A stretch of 61,297 nt of DNA from a virus (IMGVR_UViG_3300037465_000218:1-61297); one strand, 5' to 3'; positions 1 to 17,319 are shown, numbered from the stretch's first letter. Numbers and translations: made by a program. The notes: a model not told the origin generated them from the letters alone.

Positions 1-555
1 GTCATGGTTGCTGGCCCGCATGACCCAGATGAAGATGTCTTCGTCGTCGACGAAGCCACCCAGGCCGGACACACCGGTCTCCTGCAGGTACAGGTAGTCC
101 TTGGCGGTGTCCTGCATCTCCCAGTTCATGCGGGAGTTGGGCCGGCGCACCTGATAGGTGCCCGACTCCAGCTTCACGGTCTGGGGCTGGCCGGTGCGGA
201 CTGCATCGGCGAAGCCCCTCCAGATGGCCTTCAGCTCGGGGAAGCTCTCGACCACCCCGTTGGGCTCGTAGCGATCGTCGATCGGGGGCATGCCCGAGAG
301 GTGGCCTTCGATGGAATCGTCGGCCAGGCCGTAGAGGCAGATGTCGTTGTCCGCCGGTTCCTCTCCCTCCGGGGCCTGGGGCGCAGGCTGGGCCTGTACC
401 AGGGTGGAGAGGTCGGGAAGGGCGGGCATCTTGACGTGAGGTGCAGCCGGGGCACTGGTCGGTGCTGCCGGCTGCGCGTAGGCATCGGCGCTTCCGCCGT
501 GTGCCTCCATCAGGCGCTTGATCAACGCCTGCGCTTGGTTGAAGTCTTTGCTCAT
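1..555 (-). CDS. Hypothetical protein, runs off the window start (MSKDFNQAQALIKRLMEAH...)
   Basis: ATG at 555 overlaps the TGA of the upstream gene (ATGA); frame open to base 1; GC3-rich codons; not in the ORF track. Confidence 0.8.
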   Translation of the reverse strand, partial: MSKDFNQAQALIKRLMEAHGGSADAYAQPAAPTSAPAAPHVKMPALPDLSTLVQAQPAPQAPEGEEPADNDICLYGLADDSIEGHLSGMPPIDDRYEPNGVVESFPELKAIWRGFADAVRTGQPQTVKLESGTYQVRRPNSRMNWEMQDTAKDYLYLQETGVSGLGGFVDDEDIFIWVMRASNHD

Positions 556-1175
556 GCGAGGGGAACCTCCGCTCCAATGTTGGAGATGAGAAGATCGATC
601 TCGTCGCTGCTCAGATCGAAAGGAGAACGAGACTCCACTTCACTGGGGAGAATAGCGAAGTCCCCCAGATCGGTCTCGGAGTCGAACTCGATCTCGTTCA
701 GCTCACGATGCGCACGGGCCGCGAGAAGGTTGGCTTTCAGTGCTGCCCGGTGGGCTGCCTTGTCGGGCACCGTGTTCTGTTCGAGCACGAAGTCCACTGA
801 GGGCACGATGTTGGTCAGCTCCAGGGTGTCGTCGTTGAAGTCGGGCTGTACCGTCTCGTCGATGAAGGTGGTGCGCAGATTCCAGCTGCGCTTCATCTTG
901 GGATCCTCCTTGCGGATGATCTCCACGATCTGCGCACACCACTTCTGCTTGCGCTGCCAAGAGACCAGCACGGTCACGAGCAGAACCACGCTCTTCACTG
1001 CCCAGACGTTGAACGACTCGATCTGGTCCTTCTTGCGGGTGTTGGGAGTGAAGGTAGCGGGGATCTCCAGCATCTGACGGAGCTGGTCTTCGTCGATGTT
1101 CAGGGGCCACACGGTCTGGCCGTCTACGCCATCCAGGATGGAAAGCTCCTGGACGGCGAGTTCTACTTTCAGCAC
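552..1175 (-). CDS. Hypothetical protein
   Basis: 207 aa, GAGGAG RBS, GC3-biased codons, tightly packed with neighbours. Confidence 0.8.
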   Translation of the reverse strand: MLKVELAVQELSILDGVDGQTVWPLNIDEDQLRQMLEIPATFTPNTRKKDQIESFNVWAVKSVVLLVTVLVSWQRKQKWCAQIVEIIRKEDPKMKRSWNLRTTFIDETVQPDFNDDTLELTNIVPSVDFVLEQNTVPDKAAHRAALKANLLAARAHRELNEIEFDSETDLGDFAILPSEVESRSPFDLSSDEIDLLISNIGAEVPLA

Positions 1176-1178
1176 GAT

Positions 1179-1436
1179 CTACTCCTCGAAGTCTTCGGGG
1201 TCGGCACCGCACCAACCACACACGCCGCTCCAAAGGCGGCGATGCTTGTGGCAGACGGTACAGTTCCCGAAGTCGTTGATGTCGGGTTGGGTGAGGTTCG
1301 GCGTCTTGACTCGCAGCGCGCACTCCCCATCGGGGGCTTGCTCTGCGACTTCGGTTAGCTCCACCTCCACGGGATTCGACGCGTTCTTGAGCAGCTGCGC
1401 CCATCGCAGCTGTTCCTCGTGTAGCCGATCGCTCAT
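1179..1436 (-). CDS. Hypothetical protein with C-terminal CxxC...CxxC Zn-ribbon
   Basis: CTVC...CGWC; AAGGAGG RBS. Confidence 0.75.
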   Translation of the reverse strand: MSDRLHEEQLRWAQLLKNASNPVEVELTEVAEQAPDGECALRVKTPNLTQPDINDFGNCTVCHKHRRLWSGVCGWCGADPEDFEE

Positions 1437-1446
1437 GCGATCCTCC

Positions 1447-1578
1447 TTAGACGAGGGAGTTGACGACCAGGGCGGCGGTCGAGGTCAGCACGGCGAACGT
1501 GCCGAGCACGTTGTTGCCCCGGCTGAGCTGGATGAAGCCGGCGATGCCGCCGAGGATGGCGAGGGTGGTGATCAGCAT
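1447..1578 (-). CDS. Small membrane protein (43 aa, two hydrophobic segments)
   Basis: AAGGAG RBS 10 nt before ATG; MLITTLAILGGIAGFIQL... Confidence 0.65.
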   Translation of the reverse strand: MLITTLAILGGIAGFIQLSRGNNVLGTFAVLTSTAALVVNSLV

Positions 1579-1614
1579 GATGACACGTCTCCTTGCGGAT
1601 GTTGATGAGAGGGG

Positions 1615-1645
1615 GAAAAGGAAGGGCCCCACCATGGGGCCCTTC
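1615..1645 (-). terminator. Intrinsic terminator
   Basis: Perfect 10-bp stem GAAGGGCCCC/GGGGCCCTTC followed by CTTTT on the minus strand. Confidence 0.65.
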
Positions 1646-1693
1646 TCTTGGATCCGGATCCCGCTAGGGATCCCTGCGTAGCACAGGATCCCG

Positions 1694-1972
1694 TCAGGGA
1701 TCCATGCGCTGTTCCCAGCAGCGCCCGTCCAAGTCGGCCTGGGCGGCTTCCTTGGTCGGGTAGTACTGGGAGTCTCGGCTGACCGGTCCCTGCTCGTCCC
1801 AGCAGCCTAGGTAGTACCCGGCTCCGGACTGGCAGACGGTCAGCGGGTGATCCTCTTCGAGGATCTTGGCGGCGAGGAAGCTGGTCTTGTGCGTGATGCA
1901 GTGGTTGACCAGTTCCTTCTCCAGCAGATCTTGGGGCGGGCGCGTGAAGGACATGGTTTCGAGGCAGCCCAT
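1694..1972 (-). CDS. Conserved phage hypothetical protein (VCQSGAGYYLG...GPVSRDSQYY motif)
   Basis: Motif typical of small phage proteins; start uncertain (1972 or 2002). Confidence 0.7.
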   Translation of the reverse strand: MGCLETMSFTRPPQDLLEKELVNHCITHKTSFLAAKILEEDHPLTVCQSGAGYYLGCWDEQGPVSRDSQYYPTKEAAQADLDGRCWEQRMDP

Positions 1973-1980
1973 GGGTTCTG

Positions 1981-2715
1981 CTACTTCCATTCGTTCGGCC
2001 ACTGGATCCGCCCCTCATTGAGGCGGAACTTCTGCGGCGCGGTGGGTCGGTTGTAGGAGCACTTCTCGTGGTACAGGCAGCGGGTCTCGTCGCTGCCCCG
2101 CTCCACCACCGGGCGAATCCCGATGATGTTGCGGGCGACCTCGACCAGAGCCCCGCTCCCCCGAGTGGACTTCTTGTCCTTGGTGCGATGGATCACACCC
2201 AGGATGGAGACGTCCTCGGCTCGGCACCACTGGCGCAGGGACTGGATCTCCAGGCGGCTCTTCTTGTAGGCGGTGCCGGCTTCCAGGAAGTTCAGCACCG
2301 GATCGAGAACCACCAGCCGGGGCTTTCCCAGCTTGGTTTCGACTTCCTTGACCATGGCTCGCAGCTCCGTGAGTCCGCGGGGGTAGTTGGCCTGGAGGTC
2401 GAGGTCGTCGATGATGGCCACACGATCGAGGGCCGGGGCGGTCTCCGGCCGCCGAGAGTTGGCCCGCAGGCGGCCCTTGATGATCTCGGCGTAGTCCTCG
2501 GTAGACAGGAACAGGGTCAGGTCTCCATTCTCGGCGATGTTGGCGGCGATGTGGGCGGCGAAGGTGGACTTCCCGATGGCCGGGTCTCCCACCAGGAAGG
2601 TGAGTTCCCCTCGGGGAATCCAGGGCTCGGCCAGGTAGGCCAGCGGCCGGTCGGGGATCTCCCGAGCCAGCCGCACGGCCTCTCCGAAGGTCAGCGGTTG
2701 GGACTTGGCGGCCAT
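1981..2715 (-). CDS. RecA-family AAA_25 (RepA-helicase-like) ATPase
   Basis: Walker A GDPAIGKST, Walker B LVVLDP, GVIH..K and RGSGAL motifs; GGGAG RBS before ATG 2715. Confidence 0.85.
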   Translation of the reverse strand: MAAKSQPLTFGEAVRLAREIPDRPLAYLAEPWIPRGELTFLVGDPAIGKSTFAAHIAANIAENGDLTLFLSTEDYAEIIKGRLRANSRRPETAPALDRVAIIDDLDLQANYPRGLTELRAMVKEVETKLGKPRLVVLDPVLNFLEAGTAYKKSRLEIQSLRQWCRAEDVSILGVIHRTKDKKSTRGSGALVEVARNIIGIRPVVERGSDETRCLYHEKCSYNRPTAPQKFRLNEGRIQWPNEWK

Positions 2716-2720
2716 ACGTC

Positions 2721-3089
2721 TTATCTCCCGTCCAGAAATCTCTGGTAGGTGTGCCCATGGCAGGGCTTGGGGTGGCAGAAGCAGACCAGGGTCTTTCCCT
2801 GGTGCTGGCGCAGGGTGGCATGGATCCACTCCAGGCGCTTGGGTTCGATCACGAACAGGCCCGAGTCTCGGCGGTAGAACCAGTTCTCGAACATGCGGAT
2901 GCTCTCGGAGTGGTCCTTCACCTTGACTTCGGCCAGGGAGATCGGCCGCGCGCTGAACGGGTTGCCATAGTGCATCCCGTTCCGCTTGCGCCCGATGTAC
3001 ACGAAGTGTTCGTCCCGCACCCAGTTCGGGTAGGTCCGATCCAGCTCGTGCTTGTTGGCCACGGAGGTGGCCGGTAGAACCTTCTGCAT
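2721..3089 (-). CDS. DUF4326 family protein
   Basis: VYIGR...YGNPF...GKTLVCFCHPKPCHG signature; GGAG RBS. Confidence 0.85.
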   Translation of the reverse strand: MQKVLPATSVANKHELDRTYPNWVRDEHFVYIGRKRNGMHYGNPFSARPISLAEVKVKDHSESIRMFENWFYRRDSGLFVIEPKRLEWIHATLRQHQGKTLVCFCHPKPCHGHTYQRFLDGR

Positions 3090-3099
3090 GTGTGGTCTC

Positions 3100-3186
3100 C
3101 TAGGTGCGCAGTCGATCGCGCACCGCCATGAGGATTCGTCCCAGCTTATTCTCGCCCCAGTAGGTGTCATTCTCAGGTGAAGCGGG
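3100..3186 (-). pseudogene. NADAR (YbiA-like) C-terminal remnant
   Basis: Frame reads PASPENDTYWGENKLGRILMAVRDRLRT*, matching the NADAR C-terminus (D.YWG...N.LG.ILM.VR..L); no start codon upstream of the motif. Confidence 0.6.
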
Positions 3187-3199
3187 CTCGTGAGAGACA

Positions 3200-3556
3200 C
3201 TAACGCATTCTCACAATCCCATCTTCCACCTTTCCGATCCACTGGTTGGGCTCCAGGGGCTTTCCCTGGGCATCGTGCGTGCGGATCACCCACACGATGC
3301 GTGCGCCCTTGCGGGCGCGAGCCGCTTCCGGGCTGGTCTTGTTGGGATTCTGTTCGACGTAGCGGATGCCTTCGTGGTCCACTCCGATGCAGGCCCCTCC
3401 CGCCATGACCTTGGTACTCACCCTAGCACCACTGGGCAGGCTGAAGAAGCGAACCTTGCTGAAGATGGCTCCCACGATGGCAGCCAGCTCGGGGAACTGG
3501 TCGACGTTCCCGAGCACGCGATCCATCCCGCGGTGGTCGATCTGGGTCTGAGCCAT
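3200..3556 (-). CDS. Hypothetical protein
   Basis: 118 aa, GAGGAG RBS, GC3 bias. Confidence 0.8.
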   Translation of the reverse strand: MAQTQIDHRGMDRVLGNVDQFPELAAIVGAIFSKVRFFSLPSGARVSTKVMAGGACIGVDHEGIRYVEQNPNKTSPEAARARKGARIVWVIRTHDAQGKPLEPNQWIGKVEDGIVRMR

Positions 3557-3596
3557 TCTGGCTCCTCCTCACGAAGCTGAGAGAATCAGAGGTCTC

Positions 3597-3977
3597 TCAG
3601 GCAGGCACCGACTCGTACTGGATGCCCACCCTCTGGAGGGCCAAGCCCAGGTAGCCGGTGATGTTGATGATTCGGTTCAGCTCGCCCACATCCCAGGCGT
3701 CGCTGCTGATGGTGTGTGGTTGGAACCTAGCGTCCAGCTCGATGCCCCTGAAGCGGGCCCGATGGATCTTGAAGCGGGTTTCCTGCGCCCACTTCTCCAC
3801 GGACTCGGGGCTTCCGTGGCGGTGGGTGGTGAAGCGGATCTCCTTGATGCGGTTGGGATCGTAGGTGAAGCCGATGGCTACCTCGCGACCCCGATAGAGG
3901 ATGTCCTCTCCCCCGTAGTTCAGCTGATGGACGAGAAGAAACTCGCTTCCTTCTCGGCGGTAGAAGATCTCCGACAA
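3597..3977 (-). CDS. Hypothetical protein
   Basis: TTG start with AAGGAG RBS 8 nt upstream; 126 aa. Confidence 0.7.
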   Translation of the reverse strand: MSEIFYRREGSEFLLVHQLNYGGEDILYRGREVAIGFTYDPNRIKEIRFTTHRHGSPESVEKWAQETRFKIHRARFRGIELDARFQPHTISSDAWDVGELNRIINITGYLGLALQRVGIQYESVPA

Positions 3978-4078
3978 GACTTGGTCTCCTTGAGCTTGGT
4001 GGCCGGCGCATCGTAGAGCGCCACCCACTGGCAGACGATGCCGATGAGGGCCAGAAGCAGGATTCCGGCCATGATCAT
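3920..4078 (-). CDS. Small membrane protein
   Basis: MIMAGILLLALIGIVCQWVAL...; ATGA-coupled to the upstream ORF. Confidence 0.5.
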   Translation of the reverse strand: MIMAGILLLALIGIVCQWVALYDAPATKLKETKSCRRSSTAEKEASFFSSIS

Positions 4079-4173
4079 CCGATGGACCTCACCAGGATGA
4101 TCGTCACGAAGTGGTCGAACAGGGCCAAGAGCAGGCCCACGCCGGACACTCCGAGCACATGTAGCGGCTTCAT
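4075..4173 (-). CDS. Small hydrophobic peptide (32 aa)
   Basis: MKPLHVLGVSGVGLLLALFDHFVTIILVRSIG; ATGA overlaps at both ends. Confidence 0.55.
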   Translation of the reverse strand: MKPLHVLGVSGVGLLLALFDHFVTIILVRSIG

Positions 4174-4715
4174 GCTCGGTTCTCCTTGATCTCCTCGCAA
4201 AGGCCAAAGAGATCGTCGTGGTTGAAGTTGCGCAGATCGATGAGGCGCACACCTTCGGTCTCCGCGATGCGCATGCCCTGTCCCGTACCACCGAGGCGGT
4301 TCGGAGCAGGAAAGGCGAGGCAGAGGTCGACAGCCATGAAATCGGGGGGAGGGAGCATGATGGAGGAGTTGCGGGACATGAGCTTCTTGGCTCCCTGGCT
4401 CAGGCGATTCCAGGCGGGATGGTGCTTCTGGGCGACCAGCTCGAAGTACTTGCTGCGATCCTCGGTTAGTTCGTCCAGGTTGTGAACGATGTTCTTGTCA
4501 TGGATGGCGTGGCGTTCGAAGTTGTACCAGGGCAGATGCAGATGTACCAACGCGGGATTCACCCGGTTGGCACCACGAGCGAAGGCCTGATCGGCTCCCG
4601 GGGCATTCCCGGTATGTAGCTCATGCCCGCACTCCACCACCCAGGCACCCAGCTTCTCGCAGGTACCCAGGCAGAAAGGATCCAGATCTCGCGAACCAAT
4701 GCACGCAACACGCAT
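4170..4715 (-). CDS. SLOG (DprA/YspA-like) nucleotide-binding protein
   Basis: ACIGSR...HTGNAPGADQAF...RN...GGTGQGMRIA motifs. Confidence 0.85.
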   Translation of the reverse strand: MRVACIGSRDLDPFCLGTCEKLGAWVVECGHELHTGNAPGADQAFARGANRVNPALVHLHLPWYNFERHAIHDKNIVHNLDELTEDRSKYFELVAQKHHPAWNRLSQGAKKLMSRNSSIMLPPPDFMAVDLCLAFPAPNRLGGTGQGMRIAETEGVRLIDLRNFNHDDLFGLCEEIKENRA

Positions 4716-4810
4716 GATTGGTACCTCCTGTTGATGACCACCACACGAAGAGAATACCGAACCCCTACTGGGAGTGCCCTCCGCACTCCCTGGGATTCAT
4801 CTGTGATGTC

Positions 4811-5050
4811 CTACCACGCGCGCGCCAACTCCGGCCCACGCTGGTAGTTCTTGATCGACACCACATTTTTGGGCCGGGTACCCAACAGCAGGCGTCTCAA
4901 CTCTCGACGCTCATGGGCAGGGAGATCGTTTAGCTCCACGGGTTCTCCCATCTTCTCCAACAGGCGTTCGGGCAAGCGATCGATCAGCTGGGTCAGCTTG
5001 TGGCTCACGATCAGGCCGGCCACGAAGGCCAGCAGTAGGTAGAAGTACAC
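4811..5050 (-). CDS. Membrane-anchored hypothetical protein
   Basis: GTG start, AAGGAGG RBS, N-terminal TM segment. Confidence 0.7.
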   Translation of the reverse strand: MYFYLLLAFVAGLIVSHKLTQLIDRLPERLLEKMGEPVELNDLPAHERRELRRLLLGTRPKNVVSIKNYQRGPELARAW

Positions 5051-5131
5051 GGTCTGGCCTCCTTTCGTTGGCCTTGGGCGAAAGAGAAGGGAGAACAACC
5101 TGGCATCTCCAGGCGTTCTCCCGTTCTCTAC

Positions 5132-5416
5132 CTAGTGGACGGTATCCTTCTTGGGCAGGAGACCGGCCGATTGCAGGCGGTTGCGCACTCTCTCGTACGC
5201 ATCGTCCATGGCTTCCTTGGCTCCCGGCACCTGTTCTTCCGCAGTTGCCTGTTGGGCGGGGGTCAAGGTAGCCAAGCGGCGATCCATGGTCATCTCGTAC
5301 ACCGCCGAGATGTCCTCATGGATGCTGGACAGAACTTCCGCTTCGTCGTCAGCGAGATCCTCGTCCAGCAGGATCTCCTTGAGCAGCGCGAGGACCTTCT
5401 CGAACTTGGCGTCCAT
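5132..5416 (-). CDS. Hypothetical acidic helical protein
   Basis: 94 aa, GAGG RBS. Confidence 0.75.
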   Translation of the reverse strand: MDAKFEKVLALLKEILLDEDLADDEAEVLSSIHEDISAVYEMTMDRRLATLTPAQQATAEEQVPGAKEAMDDAYERVRNRLQSAGLLPKKDTVH

Positions 5417-5425
5417 GGCGTCCTC

Positions 5426-5563
5426 TCAGAACAGCAGGTTCCGCACCCAGTCGCCCCAGGTCTTGATGACCAGGGCGAACAGGTAGGTCCCATGCAGGTA
5501 GAGGCCGAACCCAAGGGCACTGGCGAGGGCCCCGTGGGCAAAGCCGTTGGTGTAGCGCAGCAT
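5426..5563 (-). CDS. Small membrane protein (45 aa)
   Basis: MLRYTNGFAHGALASALGFGLYLHGTYLFALVIKTW...; fills the gap between coupled genes. Confidence 0.6.
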   Translation of the reverse strand: MLRYTNGFAHGALASALGFGLYLHGTYLFALVIKTWGDWVRNLLF

Positions 5564-5760
5564 CACTGGTACCTCAGGATGCTGGGGCCGTAGCAGGCCA
5601 GGGCCCGCTCCTCGTGATACTCGAAGACGTCGGCTTCCATCAGGTCGAGGTCGGCCTGGGTCAGGGGCTCGAAGCGCCCCGTGGTGGGATTCAGCTGCAG
5701 GATGCCGAAGGGACCGAAGTCCACCCGGCCCAGCAGTCGGTTGATGAGGCGTCGGAACAT
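5563..5760 (-). CDS. Hypothetical protein
   Basis: MFRRLINRLLG...; AGGAG RBS before ATG 5760. Confidence 0.7.
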   Translation of the reverse strand: MFRRLINRLLGRVDFGPFGILQLNPTTGRFEPLTQADLDLMEADVFEYHEERALACYGPSILRYQ

Positions 5761-5762
5761 GG

Positions 5763-6116
5763 TCAGATACTCCTGATGTTGGGAGCTTCCTGGAACAGCT
5801 GACTCAGCTGACGTGAGGCTTGCTCCCAGTTGAGGCGGCGCACGGCTTCGTCCACCACGTCGGACATGGCAGGGTCCACCGGCTTTTCCCACTCTTCGCG
5901 GGGTCGGTTGATCCAGCGCTTGCCATCGTAGTCGAGCGATGCCTTGTAGACGAGATCGAGGTAGGCGTCGTCCACCTTGATTCCCGGGCACACTCGGGTG
6001 AGTGTCCCTTCGAAGCCACCGCAGGTCGAGCAGGCGAAGCAGTTGCACAGCATGCAACCGTACGGCTGATCGCAGGGGGCGCAGAGGGCTCGGACGTGGC
6101 CGTTGAGGGTGCTCAT
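5763..6116 (-). CDS. Cys-rich hypothetical protein
   Basis: CxxC...CxxCxCxxCxxCGGFEG.L...CPG motif; ATGA coupling. Confidence 0.75.
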   Translation of the reverse strand: MSTLNGHVRALCAPCDQPYGCMLCNCFACSTCGGFEGTLTRVCPGIKVDDAYLDLVYKASLDYDGKRWINRPREEWEKPVDPAMSDVVDEAVRRLNWEQASRQLSQLFQEAPNIRSI

Positions 6117-6334
6117 CGGTTCACCCACTGGCTGTCCCTGCGCGCGGCGGTGCGAATGGCCCCGGTGTTCAAGCGCAGGTGGGTGAGCGAGCACTTCTGG
6201 CAGATGTGGCGACCGGGCAGTCGCGGGTAGCTCCCGCAGGCCTGGCAGCACGAGGTGAAGCACCACCACCAGTAGCGCAGCAGCACGAAGGGTGCGGCGC
6301 ACAGGCGGCGGAGCCAGAAAGGCAGGTGATCCAT
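6113..6334 (-). CDS. Small Cys-rich (Zn-finger-like) protein
   Basis: CQACG...ICQKC; AAGGAG RBS. Confidence 0.6.
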   Translation of the reverse strand: MDHLPFWLRRLCAAPFVLLRYWWWCFTSCCQACGSYPRLPGRHICQKCSLTHLRLNTGAIRTAARRDSQWVNR

Positions 6335-6385
6335 GATGGTCTCCTTGGTTCGGGTTGGTTCAGTGGCTCGCCTTGCGGCTCGCCT

Positions 6386-6598
6386 TTAGTCGTCCGCCGG
6401 GATGCGCTTGCTGTTGGCGTGGCGCAGGGCGAACAGGGCTTCGAGGTCCGTGTCCGGCGGCAGGTCTTCGACCCGCGCACCGTACATCTCGATCTCCTCG
6501 CGGGTATTGCTACCCACGAGGACGAGCATGCACACGGTGAAGAGGAGGTAGGCTCCGAAGGCGAACCATCCCCAGTTGCTTGCGATGAACTCGAACAT
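6386..6598 (-). CDS. Small membrane protein
   Basis: N-terminal TM segment; AAGGAG RBS. Confidence 0.75.
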   Translation of the reverse strand: MFEFIASNWGWFAFGAYLLFTVCMLVLVGSNTREEIEMYGARVEDLPPDTDLEALFALRHANSKRIPADD

Positions 6599-6705
6599 TG
6601 ATTCACTCCTTCCGGTTGATGGGCGTCAAAACGAAGGGAATACAGTGTTCACACCGCGTGTTCACTGTACGTCCGCACAACGTGTGCAGGCTGTTCCTTC
6701 GATGG

Positions 6706-6739
6706 AAAAAGAGGGCGGGCCTCACTAGGAGGCCCGCCC
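6706..6739 (-). terminator. Intrinsic terminator
   Basis: GGGCGGGCCTC/GAGGCCCGCCC 11-bp stem followed by TCTTTTT on the minus strand. Confidence 0.85.
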
Positions 6740-6741
6740 AT

Positions 6742-7065
6742 GTGGCGCACTCTCGGTTTCGGTTCGCTACCGTGTATTCCAACGGGGTTCACAACCTACG
6801 GCAAGGGTGCTCCGACCCCACTTAGATGGGGTACTTACCGGCATCCACCTAGCTGACCAGGCATTGGTGGTCGTAGCCGGGACATTTAGGGCCCACCCTG
6901 GTTGAGGGAGCAACTCTCCCAGGGTAGGCCCAGCGCATGGAGCGCAGTAGCCTTACGGCTAAAGACGGATCGCTCTACATGCGCTAAGATAGGTTGACAG
7001 ACTATGCTCAGCGCGTCCGCGCTTCGCTCCCTTTCGGGATTTGCAGTATCCGGTCTGTCAGCGGA
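6742..7065 (-). ncRNA. Candidate structured non-coding RNA (unclassified)
   Basis: Series of helices (6995-7002/7053-7060; 6932-6939/6978-6985; 6889-6901/6919-6931; 6815-6832); GAAA and GUAA tetraloops read on the minus strand; no credible ORF; ends at a terminator. Confidence 0.5.
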
Positions 7066-7074
7066 TGCTCCGGA

Positions 7075-7368
7075 TCACTTGGGCTGCGGGCAATGCGTGA
7101 CCCGCAGCTGGGTGTCCTCGAACGGCGGATCCCAGGACTCCCTGACCACCCCGCCATCCCGGCAGAGTCTCTCGATCAGGGCGTCATAGTAGCCGCTGGC
7201 AAGGGTCAGCCGGCGAGCCAGCCAATCCTTGTAGTGCAGAGCGTAACCGAAGTCATCTCGGGTACACTCGATGCGTCCCTTGGAGCGTTCCCTCACCTAG
7301 TTGCAGGCTTCGTCAGCGAAGGCTCCGAAGGGCAGGGCGAAGGCGAGGAGGGCGAGGAGGTGCTTCAT
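7075..7368 (-). pseudogene. Secreted protein interrupted by an in-frame TAG
   Basis: Signal peptide MKHLLALLAFALPFGAFA-DEACN, TAG at 7297-7299, then the same frame continues for 73 codons. Confidence 0.6.
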
Positions 7369-7370
7369 GG

Positions 7371-7976
7371 CTACTCCCTCACCCGCTCGATCTCGGTCAG
7401 CATCTTCACCTCGTAGTCGGTGAGGGTCTCACCTTCCACTCGGTTGCGGCCCTGGGCTTTGGCTCGGTAGAGCGATTTGTCGGCGCGTTCCACAAGAGCC
7501 CACCCATCTTCGTCCGTCTCGGACTGCAAAGCAAAGCCCACGCTGATGGTCACCGGAGGGAGACCATTGACGCGGGCTTGCTCTACCGTGCGGCGGATGC
7601 GCTCGGCCATGACGGCCAAGCCAGCGATGCTGGTCTGTACCAAGATGCAGACGAACTCCTCGCCCCCGTAGCGGGCTGCGATGTCCGTGGTCCTGGTACA
7701 GGCCTGGATGATTCTGGCCACCTGAGCGATGACCTCATCACCCACTCGATGTCCGTACGTATCGTTCACCTGCTTGAAGTGATCGATGTCGCACATGATG
7801 ATGCCGAGGTTCTGATCGGTCCCCCGGCGGCGATGCTGGAACATGCCCTGAAGGTGCTGCTCGAAGGCCCTACGTCCCAGGAGGCCTGAGACGCAGTCCC
7901 GTCCTAGCTGCTGGATCTCCTCCTTGGCGGCCTGGAGGGCAGCCTCCAGTTCTCGGATGCGTTGGTACGGATCCAT
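7371..7976 (-). CDS. Diguanylate cyclase (coiled coil + GGDEF domain)
   Basis: DIDHFKQVNDTYGH, RTTD I-site, RYGGEEF, ADKSLYRAKAQGRN; start ATG 7976. Confidence 0.95.
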   Translation of the reverse strand: MDPYQRIRELEAALQAAKEEIQQLGRDCVSGLLGRRAFEQHLQGMFQHRRRGTDQNLGIIMCDIDHFKQVNDTYGHRVGDEVIAQVARIIQACTRTTDIAARYGGEEFVCILVQTSIAGLAVMAERIRRTVEQARVNGLPPVTISVGFALQSETDEDGWALVERADKSLYRAKAQGRNRVEGETLTDYEVKMLTEIERVRE

Positions 7977-7977
7977 G

Positions 7978-8292
7978 TCAGCTCTCCCTGATGTGCTTGA
8001 TGGAGACCCCGTCCTCCTTGAGGGCGCGGACGCAGTCCCCGCACAGGTTGGTCTTGAAGGGAGGCAGGGATGCGGCATCCTGCCTCATGAAGCGGTCGGC
8101 GGCGGGGTACTCGTGACACCCGTCACACTCGGGGATTTCGATGCATTCATCCATGATGCGGGACTTGATGCTGGTCTGAACGGCCGCGAGGATGTGCTCC
8201 TCGTTCTGCAAGCCGGCGGCGGCTCGGTTCTTGGCCAGCTCCCGAGCCTTGGCGAATTCTTCGTCGATGATCGTGAGGGCCTTGAGGGCCAT
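7978..8292 (-). CDS. Hypothetical protein with CxxC...CxxC
   Basis: AAGGAG RBS, ATG 8292; CDGC...CGDC. Confidence 0.75.
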   Translation of the reverse strand: MALKALTIIDEEFAKARELAKNRAAAGLQNEEHILAAVQTSIKSRIMDECIEIPECDGCHEYPAADRFMRQDAASLPPFKTNLCGDCVRALKEDGVSIKHIRES

Positions 8293-8352
8293 GGTAATGC
8301 TCCTTGAGTAGGGGTTGGTGTCGGAACCCAACCCGGGATCACCCCGGGTGGC

Positions 8353-8395
8353 AAAAAAAGAGGGAGCCTCCCATGCTGGTGCATGAGAGGCTCCC
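8353..8395 (-). terminator. Intrinsic terminator
   Basis: GGGAGCCTC..CATGC/GCATG..GAGGCTCCC stem followed by T7 on the minus strand. Confidence 0.85.
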
Positions 8396-8483
8396 ATGTT
8401 CTTCTTGCGGCTGGTACCCCGGGGCTCATCCAGGTTGGCTTCCCAACCACGGCGAGCCCCAGGGGTTCAGCTGCTGGCGTTCG

Positions 8484-8960
8484 CTACGCGGCGTTGCGCG
8501 CGAACGGGTTGCCCGAGCGGATCGCCGGCGCGGCCGCCTGGGGCTCCGGCTGCGACGCCGGGGCCTGGGCGGGCGTGTTGGCGGCCTCCGCGAGGGTCGC
8601 CTGCACCTCCTGATCCGCGAAGATCAGGGTGGTGAGGACCGTGCGAAGGGCGGCCGAGCGGGGCATGAAGTGGTCGTAGAACTCGCCGTCGGCCCCCTTC
8701 TCGGAGGGCATGTCGATGTGGGCCTTGCCCTTCAGCGACTTCACGACGATCCCGCGCAGCTTGATGGGGAACTTCACCCCCGTCGCGGTCTTGACCACGA
8801 GGGTCACGTCCGCGTAGCCGAACAGGACGCTCTGCGCGTGGGGCACGATCTTCCGGTGGAACCGGTCGACGCGGCTCTCGTCGCAGATGGACTCCCACAG
8901 GAGGGCGGCCTCCTGGTTGGCGTCCGCGAGGTTCTGGTGCTCGTACTTGGTGCGCTGCAT
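8484..8960 (-). CDS. SpoVG-like nucleic-acid-binding protein
   Basis: GYADVTL...KLRGIVV...HIDMPSEKGADGEFYDHFMP...R..L aligns with the SpoVG pattern (A.ASVT..V.GIKV..G.FVAMPS.K..DGEY.D..HP). Confidence 0.7.
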   Translation of the reverse strand: MQRTKYEHQNLADANQEAALLWESICDESRVDRFHRKIVPHAQSVLFGYADVTLVVKTATGVKFPIKLRGIVVKSLKGKAHIDMPSEKGADGEFYDHFMPRSAALRTVLTTLIFADQEVQATLAEAANTPAQAPASQPEPQAAAPAIRSGNPFARNAA

Positions 8961-9110
8961 GATTGCTCATGCTCCTTGTGCTTCCTGGCTGGTTTCTGGA
9001 TCCCAAGTGGCGGAAGCAGTCCTGTCTGGGATCCCATCATCGGTCTGAGAGAATACCGCTGCGCAGTAGTACCCTCACGGGCTTCCACGCAGCGGCTCTT
9101 CCTGACCGCA

Positions 9111-9127
9111 AAAGATCTAAGCGAATA
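9111..9127. repeat. 17-bp exact repeat AAAGATCTAAGCGAATA, copy 1
   Basis: Identical to 9891-9907; both lie upstream of minus-strand genes. Confidence 0.85.
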
Positions 9128-9484
9128 CACCCCTGCATAGTACCCCCTCTCGGTTCTTCTCCCCTTGAGTGGTACTATCAGTGGGCGGAAAACGAAAAGG
9201 AAAATCCCCACAGATGTCCGACCAGGAATGCGCACGTATGCACACCCAGTAGGTACCAATGGAGTACGCATAGTTGTCTACCTCCATGGTCGCTTCGTGT
9301 AGTACCTACTTTTGGCGTGCGCATCTTTGACCCTCAGGGGTGTGGGCCTTGCTTGGCCCCTGATTGGCGAAAAATGCTCGGCGCAATGGAAAATGAAAGC
9401 GCGCAATGATAAGAGCCCCATGTTGTGTTCGTATCATAGCACGCTTGTTGGTTGCGCATCTATGGAAAGGATCTACCTCTTGGG

Positions 9485-9527
9485 AAAAGAAAGGGGGCCA
9501 ACCTGATAGCATCTCAGGTTAGCCCCC
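9485..9527 (-). terminator. Intrinsic terminator
   Basis: GGGGGC.AACCTGA/TCAGGTT.GCCCCC stem followed by TTTCTTTT on the minus strand. Confidence 0.8.
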
Positions 9528-9568
9528 GTTTCTTCTGGGACAGGGATTGGCTCGCTGTGGGGTGCCGG

Positions 9569-9664
9569 TTAGAGCCAGCGGTCCATGGCCTTGGTGACCA
9601 GCGGATCCACCACGAAGATGAACCCGAAGGTCAGGACGAGCATGATGGTGAAGGCGAGGCCCAT
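9569..9664 (-). CDS. Small membrane peptide (31 aa)
   Basis: MGLAFTIMLVLTFGFIFVVDPLVTKAMDRWL; GC3-rich; directly follows the upstream gene. Confidence 0.6.
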   Translation of the reverse strand: MGLAFTIMLVLTFGFIFVVDPLVTKAMDRWL

Positions 9665-9666
9665 GG

Positions 9667-9843
9667 TTAGAACCTTCCATCACCCGGGATGCAGTGGTAC
9701 ATCTCGGGCTGGTCGTCGATGACGACCGAGAGTCCGCCGCTCTGGCGGATCTCGGTGAGCATCTGGTTGATCTCGCACAGGTCGATGGGGTCGATGGCCT
9801 TCAGCAGGCGATCGGCCTTGGGAGTCCAGTACGGTGCGGGCAT
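9667..9843 (-). CDS. Hypothetical protein (58 aa)
   Basis: AAGGAG RBS before ATG 9843; GC3 bias. Confidence 0.7.
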   Translation of the reverse strand: MPAPYWTPKADRLLKAIDPIDLCEINQMLTEIRQSGGLSVVIDDQPEMYHCIPGDGRF

Positions 9844-9890
9844 GATCTTGCTCCTTCTGGTTGCTGGGTGAGTCTCCGTCAGGCTCACCC

Positions 9891-9907
9891 AAAGATCTAA
9901 GCGAATA
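9891..9907. repeat. 17-bp exact repeat AAAGATCTAAGCGAATA, copy 2
   Basis: Identical to 9111-9127. Confidence 0.85.
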
Positions 9908-10233
9908 GCTCGGCGGAAAGCCTCACTGCGAGGCATCCCCTGGCATTGGCTCTACTTCCGGCAAATACCGGCAGGGTAAAGCGACACCCTGGTACCGGTG
10001 GGGATGCCTCTGAGGCTGCGGAGGGTGGGTTATACGGGGCGATCGGAGGAGGGTTGATACTCCAGGGTCCCCCGCTGAAAGTGTAGAGATGGCAAGGATT
10101 TACACCTGCTGTTGGGTACCACATCTGGGGCCATCAGGGGTGCCAGGACAGAGGAGACCTATTGGTACATGGGGTGTCGATCGCACCCACTCGATAGATA
10201 TGTGGTACTTGGTACTTACCCCGGCCACTACCT

Positions 10234-10272
10234 TGGTGGGTATCGATCGTAGATGGTGGGTATCGATCGTAG
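10234..10272. repeat. Tandem 19-bp direct repeat TGGTGGGTATCGATCGTAG x2
   Basis: Copies at 10234-10252 and 10254-10272 (period 20). Confidence 0.9.
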
Positions 10273-10508
10273 CTGCTCCCGTTGGTCGCTATCTACTACC
10301 ATAGATGTTAGGCTACGATCGATGGGGCCATGGTACCTATTGGAGGCACCTACTTTTGGTACATGCATCCGTGGCCCTCGGGGGTGAAGTCCAAGGGTGA
10401 ATCTCTGGGGGCACCTTGTTTTGGTGTATGCATCTGGGGGCCTTCCCTGCGGGCGGCTGGTAATGAATCGGGTTGGCCGGCTTGGGTGGCGTGTCTATCT
10501 CTGGGGCC

Positions 10509-10546
10509 AAAAAAGGGGGTTGCTGACGCTTTGGTCAGCAACCCCC
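10509..10546 (-). terminator. Intrinsic terminator
   Basis: 13-bp perfect stem GGGGGTTGCTGAC/GTCAGCAACCCCC followed by T6 on the minus strand. Confidence 0.85.
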
Positions 10547-10585
10547 GGAGGGAGAACGGAGCGCGCGCGGCGCGCTGTGCCATGG

Positions 10586-10622
10586 AAAGATCCGGGGGTA
10601 CCCTCTCGGGTACCCCCGGATC
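10586..10622 (-). terminator. Hairpin/terminator after the SpoVG-like gene
   Basis: 15-bp perfect inverted repeat GATCCGGGGGTACCC (10589-10603/10608-10622) with a short T tract. Confidence 0.6.
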
Positions 10623-10637
10623 AGCGAGCGTAGCGAG

Positions 10638-10997
10638 CTACGCCGCCGAGCGCTTCCGCTCGGCGCGCTCCACCGCGCGGCTCACCGCGGGAAGCGAGAA
10701 CACGAGGCGCGTCAGCGTCTCGCGGGTCTCGCGGTTCGCGGAGAAGTACCGCGCGATCCAGCGCTCCTCCCCGCGGACCTCCTTGAGGTCTGCGGGGAAG
10801 TCCACCCGCGGAGCACCGTCGGCGGTGATCCGCACCTGAAGATCGGGCATCCCGATCTTCAGGTCCGCGCCGTCGTCGAGGACCCCCTCGACGACGAGCT
10901 CGGCATACAGGTAGCCGAGGAAGATGGAACCGCCCTCGTTCAGGCGGATCGCCTCGTTGAAGCGAGCGGAGTCGAGCGAAACGATGGACTTGGACAT
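10638..10997 (-). CDS. SpoVG-like protein (divergent paralogue); first gene of the GC-rich arm
   Basis: LGYLYAELVV...KIGMPDLQVR...PRVDFPA...YFSANRETRETLTRLVF parallels 8484-8960; AGGAG RBS. Confidence 0.6.
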   Translation of the reverse strand: MSKSIVSLDSARFNEAIRLNEGGSIFLGYLYAELVVEGVLDDGADLKIGMPDLQVRITADGAPRVDFPADLKEVRGEERWIARYFSANRETRETLTRLVFSLPAVSRAVERAERKRSAA

Positions 10998-11022
10998 GCG
11001 AGTCTCCTAACGAGCATGGACA

Positions 11023-11184
11023 AGTCCCAGCAGGACCCGTTCCTGCGGGGACTGCGTCCTAGAATAGCGGTCGTCTTCGACCGCTTCCGAAGAGCGAAGC
11101 GAATCTCTTCGCTCTTCCGAGATCCCGTACGCTTTGGTACGGGATCTCGGAATTGAGCGCGCGCTGTGAAAGCGCACGCTCAAT
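11023..11184. repeat. Array of five closely spaced inverted repeats
   Basis: Stems at 11023-11053, 11066-11085, 11089-11117 (11 bp), 11115-11152 (16 bp perfect) and 11152-11184. Confidence 0.85.
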
Positions 11185-11520
11185 CCGCTTGCGCCAGCTC
11201 AGACCGAAGGGATGAGCGAAGCAAGCTTCCAAAGCATCCAGAACGCGAGAGCGGTCGGGATGCTGATGGCGAGTAGACGAGACATGAGTGGTCCTCCACG
11301 AATGGCGAGTCTACGAGCACCCGCACGCACCATGCGTGCGGGTTCTCTCGTTTTACCCCCGGGAGGGGGTATAAACGATGAGGCCTATCAAGTATCTAAG
11401 AGAATCTGGAGGTGCCTGGTACTACACTTCCAGGGATGAAAGGTTTAGGGGAAGACTGACGGGGTATATGGGTACCTGGGAAAATGTGGCGGGGATGTGG
11501 AGGTGTTAGGGGAGGATCCC

Positions 11521-11549
11521 TTGACAAGTGTAGACGGATTGCGTATGAT
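11521..11549 (+). promoter_or_regulatory. sigma70-type promoter
   Basis: TTGACA-17 nt-TATGAT. Confidence 0.85.
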
Positions 11550-11568
11550 TCCTCCAGGAGGAATAGAT

Positions 11569-11880
11569 GTGACTCATTCTAATCTCAAGCAGACTATTGA
11601 GACTTACTACATAGTGCAACGACGTAGGAAGAATGGCCGATGGGTTCAAATTCACCCGCCGAGAAAATTTGGTACGGGGCACCACGGACTGGGCCTTAAA
11701 CTCCTACGGGAGTGGGTCTGGAACTTGGAGCACCGGGAATGGCCTTGGAAAAAGGTTTCTCATCCTTTAGGCCAATTGCGAATAGTCCGAGTTGAGCGAG
11801 TCCGGACTGAGCAGAAGTTCTTTGAACCTACCAAGTTTAATCCCAGGCGCAAGAAAAGTCGGTCTGGAAGGTGGGTATAA
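11569..11880 (+). CDS. Basic hypothetical protein
   Basis: AGGAGG RBS before GTG 11569, downstream of the promoter. Confidence 0.7.
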   Translation: MTHSNLKQTIETYYIVQRRRKNGRWVQIHPPRKFGTGHHGLGLKLLREWVWNLEHREWPWKKVSHPLGQLRIVRVERVRTEQKFFEPTKFNPRRKKSRSGRWV

Positions 11881-11894
11881 AGGCTTCAAGTTTG

Positions 11895-11923
11895 TTGCAA
11901 GTTAGCTCATTCTATCGTATAAT
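11895..11923 (+). promoter_or_regulatory. sigma70-type promoter
   Basis: TTGCAA-17 nt-TATAAT. Confidence 0.8.
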
Positions 11924-12045
11924 TTCCTGTGAGGGCATAGTGATTGCTCTCAAGTTGTGTGAGATTCGTTCGGAGCGCGCCGAGAAAATTGTGTAAATGC
12001 CTGGTTTTGCTCGGATTACGCTCACATCCAAGAATTGAGGTTTTC

Positions 12046-12387
12046 ATGGTAGATATCAACGGAAATCCCGGAGTTGTTGTCGAAGAGGCCAACTACGACA
12101 AGAAGACTATGCAGGCCAATTTCTCGGCTTTGCTTTATCTTCTCACCGAACAACAGGCTATGATTGGCAAATTGCTCCAGGCTTTGCTGGATAGTGGCGT
12201 GTTGCGCTCGCACCAATTGTCCGCCATCACGGACATGGAAGCAGGGGACGAAGGCCTACACCCTACATATACCCTTTTGTACCAGCGCTACGCTCAGTAC
12301 TTCATGCGTACCAAAGAGCTACTCGACAATCCACCCGATCCGGACGGAACCTATCGCGATAAGCCCAAGGAGCCGATCCATGGTTAA
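12046..12387 (+). CDS. Hypothetical protein (paralogue of the next gene)
   Basis: GAGG RBS; shares QA..AL..L..E...L.D.G.LR...AI pattern. Confidence 0.75.
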   Translation: MVDINGNPGVVVEEANYDKKTMQANFSALLYLLTEQQAMIGKLLQALLDSGVLRSHQLSAITDMEAGDEGLHPTYTLLYQRYAQYFMRTKELLDNPPDPDGTYRDKPKEPIHG

Positions 12388-12775
12388 AGGTGAAGGGGTA
12401 ATGGATAAACAGGCGCGCGGAGAATTTAGCCAAATCTCTGAGCGCGATAAGGAAATCCAAGCGTCTATTTGGGCTTTGATTTTCCTGACCTCGGAAATGG
12501 CTTTGGCTTTTCGGGCCCTCCGAGACAAGTTACAGGATCGGGGTGCTTTGCGACCCGAGGACAATGCGGCTATCGATCAACTCGCTTCTGAGGGGGAAAA
12601 TCTACGCCGCGCCTACGAGCACATTGAGAAGGCCTTCCGCGAAAAGTATGATCGCGTCTGGACGGCCATGGAAGCCCCAGCCGAAGTCACCAATTTTGTA
12701 CAAGAGCGATTCGGATCGGGGAAGATCGTTGATTTGAACGACCAAAAATTACCTGTGGTTACAGGAACGAAGTAG
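12380..12775 (+). CDS. Hypothetical protein (paralogue of the previous gene)
   Basis: AAGGAG RBS; start 12380 or 12401. Confidence 0.75.
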   Translation: MVKGEGVMDKQARGEFSQISERDKEIQASIWALIFLTSEMALAFRALRDKLQDRGALRPEDNAAIDQLASEGENLRRAYEHIEKAFREKYDRVWTAMEAPAEVTNFVQERFGSGKIVDLNDQKLPVVTGTK

Positions 12776-12784
12776 GGGATTATC

Positions 12785-13123
12785 ATGAACCGAGAGATTC
12801 ACATCGACATGGAAGAGACGACCACTGCTTTGGCCGAAAGGCTGGCCCACGATACCATGTTCCGCGCCATCTGCGCTGGTGATCCCACCGCCATGCGTCG
12901 TCTTGAACAACAGGGGAGCATCAAAATTCCTATCGATCTACGAAGAGAGACTCCGCTTGGTCAACGCCAGGTCGAGTCTCTTTTGCGTTTTATGGTCCCG
13001 CGCGAAATTGAACGGGCCATGGAAGACGCAGAAGGGGACAATAAAGTCTACGACGACTTAGGGGAGCATCGCATTCTTGGGCGCGCCAAAAAGGTAAAGG
13101 CTTCCCGCATCCTGGAGAGCTAA
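12785..13123 (+). CDS. Hypothetical protein
   Basis: 112 aa, operon packing. Confidence 0.75.
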   Translation: MNREIHIDMEETTTALAERLAHDTMFRAICAGDPTAMRRLEQQGSIKIPIDLRRETPLGQRQVESLLRFMVPREIERAMEDAEGDNKVYDDLGEHRILGRAKKVKASRILES

Positions 13124-13764
13124 TGTCACTAGACGACATCTGGCGGGATTTCTACATTGAGAATACTCGCGCAGACTTGGACGCTGCTTGGGATGCTGCT
13201 GCCCCGTCTAACCCCGTCAATGTTCTGGAGCTGGGTGTATGTAATGGGGGAAGCCTCAGGTACTGGTCGGAGCGAGTTCCGGAAAACGGATTAGTCGTTG
13301 GCGTTGATATCTCGCCCACAATTTTTGATCAGATCACAGGCAAAGTCCGCAAGGGAAATTGGCAGATCCGCGAGATGGTGACCGATAACATCGCGCGACT
13401 AGAAAGCAGCCGTGAGGTCTATGTGGTATGCGGCGATTCTTCAAGACCCGAAACCCGCCAATGGGTGGAAGGTCTTCTCGGGGATCGGAAATTCGATCTT
13501 TTCTACCACGATGCCATGCACTATGACGTTATCCCGTTGCAGGACATCAACAACTATCAGCACCTTCTCCGTATGGGCGGGACGCTGATCGTGGCCGACA
13601 CCCACATGGCACGTCAACCCGAGCTGATTGAATTTTGCGATATCACTTACGAAACAATTGGTACTAATCAGGTGGTCCACCGACTCCCGCCCGAGAAAAG
13701 AGTTTTGAGCACTTCGCAAGAAATGGTGGCGTGGCTCAAGGATCGGGAAATCAAGATGCGATAG
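13123..13764 (+). CDS. Class I SAM-dependent methyltransferase (Methyltransf_24-like)
   Basis: VLELGVCNGGS, VVGVDI, GDS, FDLFYHDAMH, LRMGGTLIVAD. Confidence 0.85.
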   Translation: MSLDDIWRDFYIENTRADLDAAWDAAAPSNPVNVLELGVCNGGSLRYWSERVPENGLVVGVDISPTIFDQITGKVRKGNWQIREMVTDNIARLESSREVYVVCGDSSRPETRQWVEGLLGDRKFDLFYHDAMHYDVIPLQDINNYQHLLRMGGTLIVADTHMARQPELIEFCDITYETIGTNQVVHRLPPEKRVLSTSQEMVAWLKDREIKMR

Positions 13765-13774
13765 GAGTGAAGAG

Positions 13775-13921
13775 ATGTGGCAAGCCTTCCTAGAGGAGCT
13801 GGGTAAGCTTCTTGCTTTCATCGGTATCCTGCTACTGATCTCTCTCCCAGGCTGGGCAGCCCTAGGGCTGCTGTACTTCCTGGGTCACTTTTTCAAAGCA
13901 CTGGGCGTCGAAGTCCAGTAG
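13775..13921 (+). CDS. Small membrane protein (48 aa)
   Basis: MWQAFLEELGKLLAFIGILLLISLPGWAALGLLYFL...; GGAG RBS. Confidence 0.6.
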   Translation: MWQAFLEELGKLLAFIGILLLISLPGWAALGLLYFLGHFFKALGVEVQ

Positions 13922-13928
13922 GAGCAGC

Positions 13929-17287: not shown

Positions 17288-17319
17288 TGAAGAGTCGAGA
17301 CTCGACAGGAGTGGAGACC

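Follow-up and report, generated by a model that had tools for sequence, protein, structure and literature searches.

The first 11.4 kb of a 61,297-bp stretch of viral DNA, IMGVR_UViG_3300037465_000218:1-61297 (the whole of which is called the window below), form a GC-rich arm of leftward genes that meets a right arm of about 50% G+C at a divergent control region, and the contrast between the two at third codon positions recurs in divergent relatives. On balance, and with moderate confidence, we favor the reading that this arm is an integral, lineage-conserved module of the phage whose G+C content at third codon positions (GC3) is held by selection for the codons of a GC-rich host. The window is an IMG/VR virus record of linear class with a CheckV completeness of 21%, which implies that the 61 kb are about one fifth of a phage genome near 0.3 Mb. 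Its source is an uncultivated freshwater phage, by its right-arm genes a huge or large tailed one. The two parts of the window are:
1-11440, minus strand: GC-rich arm, 61.8% G+C, 25 leftward open reading frames (ORFs), truncated by the left end of the contig
11441-61297, plus strand: right arm of a large phage, 50% G+C, encoding a methyltransferase, UDG, NDK, peptide deformylase, clamp loader, actin-like protein, prohead protease, dUTPase, ThyA, DHFR, dNMP kinase and the N-terminus of TerL

The G+C fraction is 0.618 over 1-11440 and 0.501 over 11441-61297; windows of 1 kb give 0.567-0.658 up to 11000 and 0.466-0.532 over 12001-61000, and windows of 200 bases place the drop between about 11300 and 11450. 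A first-pass annotation, made from the sequence alone, had counted 42-43 G+C per 60 bases in the arm, which holds locally at 10500-10800 but not for the arm as a whole, whose mean is 62% and not 70-72%. It had also placed all genes of the arm on the minus strand, as is the case for each of the 25 accepted ORFs in 1-11285, and all genes beyond it on the plus strand, which is right for the most part only: in a mechanical greedy set (ORFs of at least 70 amino acids (aa), start beyond 11000) 77 of 87 are on the plus strand, the other 10 being unverified minus-strand ORFs. The strand switch falls at 11.29-11.57 kb, beside a tract of tandem hairpins. The comparison of sliding G+C and GC3 proposed in that annotation yields the step just described and two GC3 distributions that do not overlap, 0.69-0.99 (mean 0.84) in the ORFs of the left arm and 0.40-0.64 (mean 0.53) in the plus-strand ORFs of the right arm (n = 76). 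Almost the whole G+C excess of the arm lies at third codon positions, the values for the first, second and third positions being 0.62, 0.42 and 0.84 on the left vs 0.555, 0.41 and 0.53 on the right, and the non-coding parts of the left arm reach 0.53-0.60 only. A positive G+C skew of the plus strand, found in both arms, was considered as a replication signal and rejected, as the arm's C-ending codons account for it.

The same contrast is seen in three relatives, all of them contigs of 1.5-1.7 kb, around homologues of the first sizeable gene of the arm. One of them, L009, is a 1462-bp metagenome contig from another sample. The genes compared are:
10638-10997, minus strand: predicted SpoVG-fold protein of 119 aa, GC3 0.92, with homologues in L009, L010 and L011
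L010 608-1114 and L011 717-1199: homologues of the 119-aa protein
Protein identity to the window is 77% in L009 and 46-47% in L010 and L011. The GC3 of the homologue vs that of its divergent neighbor is 0.78 vs 0.56 in L009, 0.80 vs 0.44 in L010 and 0.82 vs 0.47 in L011, so the two-part layout that was to be looked for in relatives does recur as a GC3 contrast, down to 46% protein identity. At 46-47% identity silent sites are saturated, and something must therefore keep renewing the contrast, either codon selection or a persistent bias or exchange proper to the module itself. Because the step recurs in three relatives at such distances, we infer that the contrast is maintained and not freshly imported. 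The choice between C and G in eight four-fold codon boxes correlates between the arms with r = 0.94, and the codons preferred in the arm are those already, more weakly, preferred in the right arm, a pattern that agrees with a high-GC host and with early expression but is proof of neither.

The join between the two arms is real and not an assembly chimera, because an independently assembled contig bridges it, both arms are found in four sequencing runs at matching depth, and L009 spans the junction. The runs (X1-X4, four studies) were compared through assembled Logan contigs and not reads, and counts are of pieces among the matches listed; X1 is the probable source run and X3 possibly belongs to the same campaign, and stretches of these runs that no contig covered were left out of the evidence. 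In X1, a contig of 8005 bp spans 8236-16240 with no difference from the window, and contig depths are 6.75, 5.99 and 6.6 over 28-8227 vs 10.3, 8.25 and 8.89 further right, the left arm thus standing at 0.6-0.8 times the depth of the right (contigs). The strain in X2 diverges from the window to a similar extent on both sides, by about 2-6.5% on the left (53/1322, 90/1385, 28/1454, 23/1076 and 50/1146 differences) and 5.3% on the right (181/3402), at depths of 7.75-13.2 and 11.4. Among the matches listed, X3 has four left and four right pieces, all exact (depth 2-4.5), and X4 two left and six right pieces (depth 3.3-4.65); both arms are thus present in each of the four runs examined. L009, at 76% DNA identity to the window, crosses the junction with the same divergent order and carries a 117-aa homologue of the 119-aa protein, a hairpin tract, a 28-aa peptide, the junction blocks, a TTGACA-17-TATAAT promoter and a first rightward gene of the type found in L007, a related 77-kb record. 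In IMG/VR the junction pattern occurs only in the L007 record.

The strand switch had been described as a non-coding hairpin tract of about 500 bp; the hairpins are real, but the tract is not fully non-coding, as it includes the conserved gene of a 28-aa peptide. From left to right the junction comprises:
10998-11198, minus strand: five tandem perfect hairpins in the leader of the 119-aa gene, RNA fold z = -10.6, none of 200 shuffles as stable
11199-11285, minus strand: 28-aa membrane peptide, first gene of the leftward unit, conserved in L009
11286-11568, no strand assigned: divergent control region with a hairpin at 11315-11347, conserved blocks and a rightward promoter
11569-11880, plus strand: first rightward gene, 103 aa, a variable cassette with another gene in L007, L009 and run X2

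Folded as DNA, 10998-11500 gives z = -10.1. The equivalent tract of L009 (560-890) has about six hairpins of other sequences (z = -11.3), and the tract is kept as structure, not as sequence. Within 11286-11568, the blocks GGGGGTATAAA, CCTGGTAC, TGAAAGGTTTAGGGGA, AAAATGTGG and GGGGAGGAT are retained in both L007 and L009. The rightward promoter is TTGACA-17-TATGAT (11521-11549), which can be aligned with L007 and L009 and has the same -35 box in all three. A second one, TTGCAA-17-TATAAT at 11895, is identical in L007; these two promoters, which open the right arm and are conserved in relatives, match the consensus at 11 and 10 of 12 positions, respectively. None of the eight sigma-70-like sites in 1-20000 lies in the arm by a consensus scan that is biased against GC-rich DNA, and the total of eight compares with 7.4 +/- 2.4 expected by chance. 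Just upstream of the first rightward promoter, in 11441-11520, the direct repeat TTAGGGGA(A/G)GA occurs twice about 60 nucleotides apart; it is kept in L007 (1-80) and less exactly in L009, and is a possible operator. In L007, L009 and X2 the place of the cassette that follows, between the first rightward promoter and the one at 11895, is taken by an unrelated gene (MEFEIT...), with the joint in X2 running from 11526 to 11883.

The 119-aa protein has a distant paralogue in the arm (E = 0.001 in a two-sequence comparison):
8484-8960, minus strand: predicted SpoVG-fold protein of 158 aa, GC3 0.99, probably a unit of its own with a 532-nucleotide leader, to a terminator at 8362-8395

The AlphaFold model of the 158-aa protein, with a predicted local distance difference test score of 84.5, returns SpoVG structures as all of its top eight Foldseek matches in the Protein Data Bank (PDB), at a probability of 0.99-1.00, template modeling scores of 0.53-0.60 by target and 0.32-0.40 by query, E values of 5e-3 to 4e-2 (none at or below 1e-3) and identities of 16-21%; Atlas leads agree with this fold. 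Against PF04026 the protein scores 18.6 bits (E 0.0021), short of the gathering threshold of 29.6, and the 119-aa protein gives no match. Because its Pfam score is under the cut-off, the 158-aa protein is filed as a predicted SpoVG fold and not as a member of the SpoVG family. SpoVG itself (PDB 2ia9, 2i9z and 2i9x; PF04026) is a bacterial DNA- and RNA-binding regulator whose structures the model matches; unlike it, the phage protein has an extra N-terminal helix and an acidic linker ending in NPF, and the sequence identity is low. The family of the 158-aa protein consists of 24 homologue clusters, all from metagenome sources, one of which (P0024) carries PF04026. No hit to it was confirmed in 185,579 prokaryote species genomes (one genome each), and tblastn with the 158-aa protein/P0013 gave none in cultured phages and none in plasmids. 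Throughout the family the acidic linker is followed by an invariant C-terminal NPF, and in L010 and L011 the homologue of the 119-aa protein has DDIPF at its C-terminus; both tips recall the protein-recruiting tip of bacterial SSB. From their unit structure, leaders and extreme codon usage, the two SpoVG-fold proteins would appear to be abundant nucleic-acid-binding proteins. The literature found on SpoVG and phages, in the parts available to us, concerns the SpoVG of the host only.

The arm's minus strand holds each of the best four terminator-like sites in 1-20000 (10546, 9527, 8395 and 6739; 29 sites in the scan vs 15.7 +/- 3.5 in shuffles), and on this ground the arm is divided into the following putative transcription units, each probably closed by a strong intrinsic terminator:
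Unit 1, minus strand: 28-aa peptide, hairpin tract and 119-aa protein
Unit 2, minus strand: proteins of 58 aa (9667-9843) and 31 aa (9569-9664)
Unit 3, minus strand: the 158-aa protein alone, with its 532-nucleotide leader and the terminator at 8362-8395
Unit 4, minus strand: a 104-aa protein, the GGDEF protein, a 23-aa signal-like peptide and a 73-aa protein
Unit 5, minus strand: a long run from 6598 to the contig end

Further features of the arm are:
1981-2715, minus strand: AAA_25 P-loop ATPase of the RecA/KaiC/DnaB type, 244 aa from the MAAKSQ start (PF13481, 2.5e-17; phrog_19 and phrog_239 helicase parts)
2721-3089, minus strand: DUF4326 protein, 122 aa (PF14216, 3.7e-14; phrog_464)
4170-4715, minus strand: SLOG/DprA-like protein, 181 aa (phrog_768, 3.5e-31)
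6599-7074, minus strand: non-coding stretch with a strong intrinsic terminator at 6713-6739, from the terminator scan, that would close the upstream unit
7371-7976, minus strand: GGDEF diguanylate cyclase, 201 aa (PF00990, 8.3e-44, 149.6 bits vs a cut-off of 23.8; TIGR00254)
8961-10637, minus strand: mostly non-coding control stretch with four copies of a 39-nucleotide repeat, terminators at 9493-9527 and 10515-10546 and two small genes

The families AAA_25, DUF4326 and SLOG had been named in the first-pass annotation and are borne out at the E values above; the GGDEF cyclase and the two SpoVG-like proteins had not been listed there. Apart from these five families, the 22 left-arm proteins scanned matched none in PHROGs or Pfam, and the arm encodes at least six small membrane peptides. 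NCBIfam gives KaiC/RadA-like and GGDEF assignments only, and models of defense and anti-defense systems yield one weak match (mad8, 2e-4, to the ATPase). The SLOG/DprA-like protein has 77 homologue clusters, several with PF18306, and phrog_768 matches 354 phage records. Contigs of 312051, 16257 and 10316 bp are common to the match lists of the SLOG and 158-aa families, and because of this the left-arm module was taken to travel together. Contigs of 57-194 kb are also among those with these two families. The GGDEF protein has a short coiled-coil N-terminus, an intact GGEEF motif and, five residues before it, RTTD at the RxxD site, which suggests an apparently active, constitutively dimeric enzyme that would raise the cyclic di-GMP (c-di-GMP) of the host. 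Host inference from this protein was tried and failed, the best 80 of 595 bacterial loci (38-51% identity) being scattered over many phyla.

Downstream of the GGDEF unit, 6700-7074 is structured (fold z = -5.8) and has no match in Rfam at threshold, c-di-GMP riboswitches included; no match at the gathering score was obtained elsewhere either, with 6400-11600 giving chance-level matches only (E 0.24-0.87). An exact 17-mer, TATTCGCTTAGATCTTT on the minus strand, has only two copies, at 9111 and 9891, both in the arm and each preceding a putative unit, and a 76% copy lies at 11390. Transcripts of the arm would be expected to begin shortly after ATTCNCTTAGAT. A tandem 20-mer (10234-10273) and, within one kb, five CGATCG sites are further found in 8961-10637, where GTAC has about twice its mean density in the window; CCAAAAGTAGGT is not above chance outside 9.3-10.4 kb. 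This stretch, which has no Rfam match, could be promoters, small RNAs or an origin. A repeated 9-mer, CGTACCAAA, is mostly inside genes and has no common context, and motifs common to the two arms were sought with little result.

The right arm also encodes methionine aminopeptidase and two HNH endonucleases. The two N-terminal maturation enzymes, peptide deformylase and methionine aminopeptidase (M24), are both present, at 20063-20578 and 35455-36228, respectively. The actin-like protein (28557-29849; Pfam Volactin 3.8e-62, weak MreB) lies between two Laminin_G_3 proteins, and the two HNH homing-type endonuclease genes, 47748-48398 and 50773-51282, are less than 3 kb apart. An NT5C nucleotidase is encoded at 25638-26261.

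A close cultured relative was not found: the clamp loader matched 1112 phage records, all below 60% identity, and megablast of 1-11500 against cultured phages gave no match. Neither three left-arm proteins nor the alignment of the 158-aa family found a match when IMG/VR was scanned. The left arm was not found in the L007 and L008 records, which are fragments and carry little weight in this respect, and a second GC-rich block is absent from the last 20 kb of the L007 record.

From the composition, layout, linkage of the arms, conservation and protein families observed above, we infer a reason for the GC3 excess, a set of transcription units and roles for the proteins. Transcription of the module would run leftward from the divergent control region (about 280 bp) in several separate units, and in two of these a long leader rich in hairpins would precede the gene of one SpoVG-fold, nucleic-acid-binding protein, the single product of the unit. 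The remainder (the RecA/KaiC-type ATPase, the DUF4326 and SLOG/DprA-like proteins, the c-di-GMP synthase and the membrane peptides) would be an accessory, host-directed set. The GC3 excess would be an intensified form of the codon preferences in the rest of the phage, kept up by selection on codon use, as these genes would be translated with the tRNAs that a GC-rich host itself supplies. A number of points weigh against this. The C-over-G preferences shared by the arms (GCC, ACC, CGC, CTG, GTG) are common in many GC-rich bacteria, and the correlation of 0.94 is one of eight points without a control and no proof of one host or one history. A regional bias, or a foreign origin common to all 25 ORFs, would account for their uniformly high GC3, which extends to the tiny ones, no less well than translational selection on single genes. 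The conserved contrast rests on three contigs of 1.5-1.7 kb, the linkage of the arms is shown for close relatives only, and the evidence from runs is of contigs and not reads, with X1 and X3 perhaps from one campaign. The total of sigma-70-like sites is at chance level and a GC-rich arm has fewer AT-rich hexamers, so the absence of such sites from it says little. More weakly, none of the 51 clusters of a right-arm protein (14041-14859) shows the 312051-bp contig or another large contig of the left-arm families; the listing behind this comparison is inconsistent for the window's own contigs and was not used as evidence.

Among the alternatives, the one that survives best, and to which we give a real though clearly minor chance, is a mosaic or hitch-hiking module from a GC-rich phage or plasmid gene pool, exchanged as a block, or a semi-autonomous element, sitting at this position, that brings a replication ATPase and iteron-like repeats of its own; in that case the composition would reflect the history of the module and not selection inside the phage. 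Such an origin would agree with the sharp composition step across every gene, with the AAA_25/DnaB-like ATPase, with the tandem 20-mer, the four 39-nucleotide repeats and the CGATCG clusters in 9844-10514, and with the recurrence of left-arm families together on other contigs. In L010 and L011 the neighbors of the homologue are not genes of the window phage, and the large contigs of the right-arm family (104042 and 111682 bp) are missing from the left-arm lists, a comparison from the same inconsistent listing that was likewise not used. However, the arm, 11.4 kb long and truncated at base 1, showed no integrase, transposase or att-like repeat, the X2 strain diverges alike in both arms (2-6.5% vs 5.3%), as for co-inherited DNA, the junction blocks and gene order are kept in L009, and the ranking of codons is common to both arms.

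The first-pass annotation had itself read the arm as a candidate pre-early, first-injected region at or near the physical genome end, with T5-like phages as the model. In its full form, a T5-like region in or beside a long terminal repeat and with an injection-stop signal in the hairpin tract, we consider this reading unlikely. In T5 the pre-early (first-step-transfer) region lies in a direct terminal repeat of several kb, is transcribed from strong early promoters by the unmodified host RNA polymerase and enters the cell first, up to an injection-stop signal, and in SPO1 the host-takeover module lies in the terminal redundancy. The arm resembles these in that some 25 small genes, with a possible action on the host, form a block next to palindromes at what looks like a terminus: many of its small genes are of unknown function, it encodes membrane peptides and a host-signaling enzyme, like takeover modules, two putatively self-contained units have a very high GC3, and the hairpin tract is real and its structure kept in L009. 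It differs in that there is no direct repeat of at least 30 nucleotides relating the arm to the rest of the window, no doubled depth (6.0-6.75 in the arm vs 8.25-10.3 in X1, so that it is not a collapsed repeat), no family match beyond the five named, and no host-type consensus promoter in the arm, the right arm opening with two conserved ones. Homologues of the T5 pre-early genes (A1, A2, deoxyribonucleotidase) were not found in the Pfam and PHROG scans of the 22 left-arm proteins; NT5C, the family of the right-arm nucleotidase, is, we take it, that of the T5 deoxyribonucleotidase. The hairpin tract lies in an mRNA leader, and the N-terminal domain of TerL is of the T4 type, a type of terminase that often goes with headful packaging without fixed ends.

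Three assemblies stop within about 100 nucleotides of the junction and two (the X1 contig and L009) bridge it. The L007 record starts at window base 11441 and that of L008 12 nucleotides ahead of its first -35 box, and 11406 is the last base of an X2 contig, as would fit a physical end of the genome. The start of L007 is, however, one base past the stop of a mechanical ORF (11212-11439), and CheckV-type pipelines cut "host" flanks at gene borders by G+C and gene content, as the accessible part of their description has it (PMC8116208). Trimming at the GC step is therefore a possible reason for the starts of L007 and L008; both are classed linear, a label that makes trimming less likely if proviruses are not given it. 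Logan contigs end wherever strains vary, and the variable first rightward gene offers another explanation for the break in X2.

It is very improbable that the arm is the flank of an integrated prophage, whether host chromosome or part of another resident element. Integration would also produce equal depth and co-occurrence of the arms, GGDEF enzymes are mainly bacterial, the left-arm families occur on a 312-kb contig of unknown nature, and the step resembles a provirus boundary as CheckV defines it in the part of its description available (PMC8116208), that is, a G+C step between adjacent gene windows. Here, unlike such a boundary, the rich side holds phage-type genes and lacks host markers, and what lies at the junction is a conserved divergent promoter region, not an att site. 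There are no tRNA genes in the window, and no integrase or housekeeping family was found among the 22 left-arm proteins scanned (Pfam, PHROGs and NCBIfam) in an arm that is truncated at base 1. Phage families of DNA metabolism are matched by three of the 22 proteins first scanned, the GGDEF protein matches eight PHROGs and is at most 51% identical to any of the best 80 bacterial loci of 595, the 158-aa family is absent from the 185,579 species genomes, and the genes are small, packed and on a single strand in the style of phages. The left arm is not recognizable host DNA, and its description as phage-like, for which a match to a bacterial chromosome had been named as the counter-test, holds. 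An assembly chimera of two unrelated genomes, for which the abrupt composition step, the metagenome source and the breaks of other assemblies at the same place might speak, is hardly credible in view of the second assembler's bridge with no differences, the matching depth and divergence of both arms in all four runs and the span of L009, so that the chimeric junction entertained in the first-pass annotation is not supported.

Segmental composition in phages is classical, phage lambda having a G+C-rich left arm and an A+T-rich right half. Like lambda, the window has blocks about 10 G+C points apart in one genome with the step at the boundary of a functional module, and the abrupt, module-wide step inside one replicon that marks a lambda-like mosaic segment is found here. 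Unlike lambda, where the rich block carries structural genes, it is here made up of small accessory genes read away from the early region, and the third-position contrast recurs in relatives at 46% protein identity; we know of no equivalent test in relatives of lambda. A search of the literature on jumbo phages with GC-rich regions and on phage SpoVG gave nothing describing such a layout. What is new is the persistence of the third-position contrast across divergent relatives, together with the contents of the module.

Tentatively, and with doubt outweighing confidence, we suggest that a huge freshwater phage lineage may keep two codon dialects, one of them that of a self-contained leftward module with GC3 of 0.8-0.99, its own promoter type and terminators, hairpin-armored leaders and two abundant SpoVG-fold proteins with SSB-like tails, which would have stayed distinct from the remaining 50% G+C genome through a long divergence. 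Its genes could be translated at once by an untouched GC-rich host, with the junction as the end of the entering DNA, or the module could be a semi-autonomous passenger of huge phages. The arm yields an uncharacterized family of predicted SpoVG-fold phage proteins, known from metagenomes only, whose C-terminal tips look built for protein recruitment. Sharp G+C steps in metagenomic viral contigs are as a rule taken for chimeras or host flanks and cut off; here automatic trimming would discard phage genes, and related records that start at the junction may already have lost the arm in this way. Provided that selection maintains the third-position contrast, the arm would be a class of genes with special translational demands and would offer a handle on the composition of the host.

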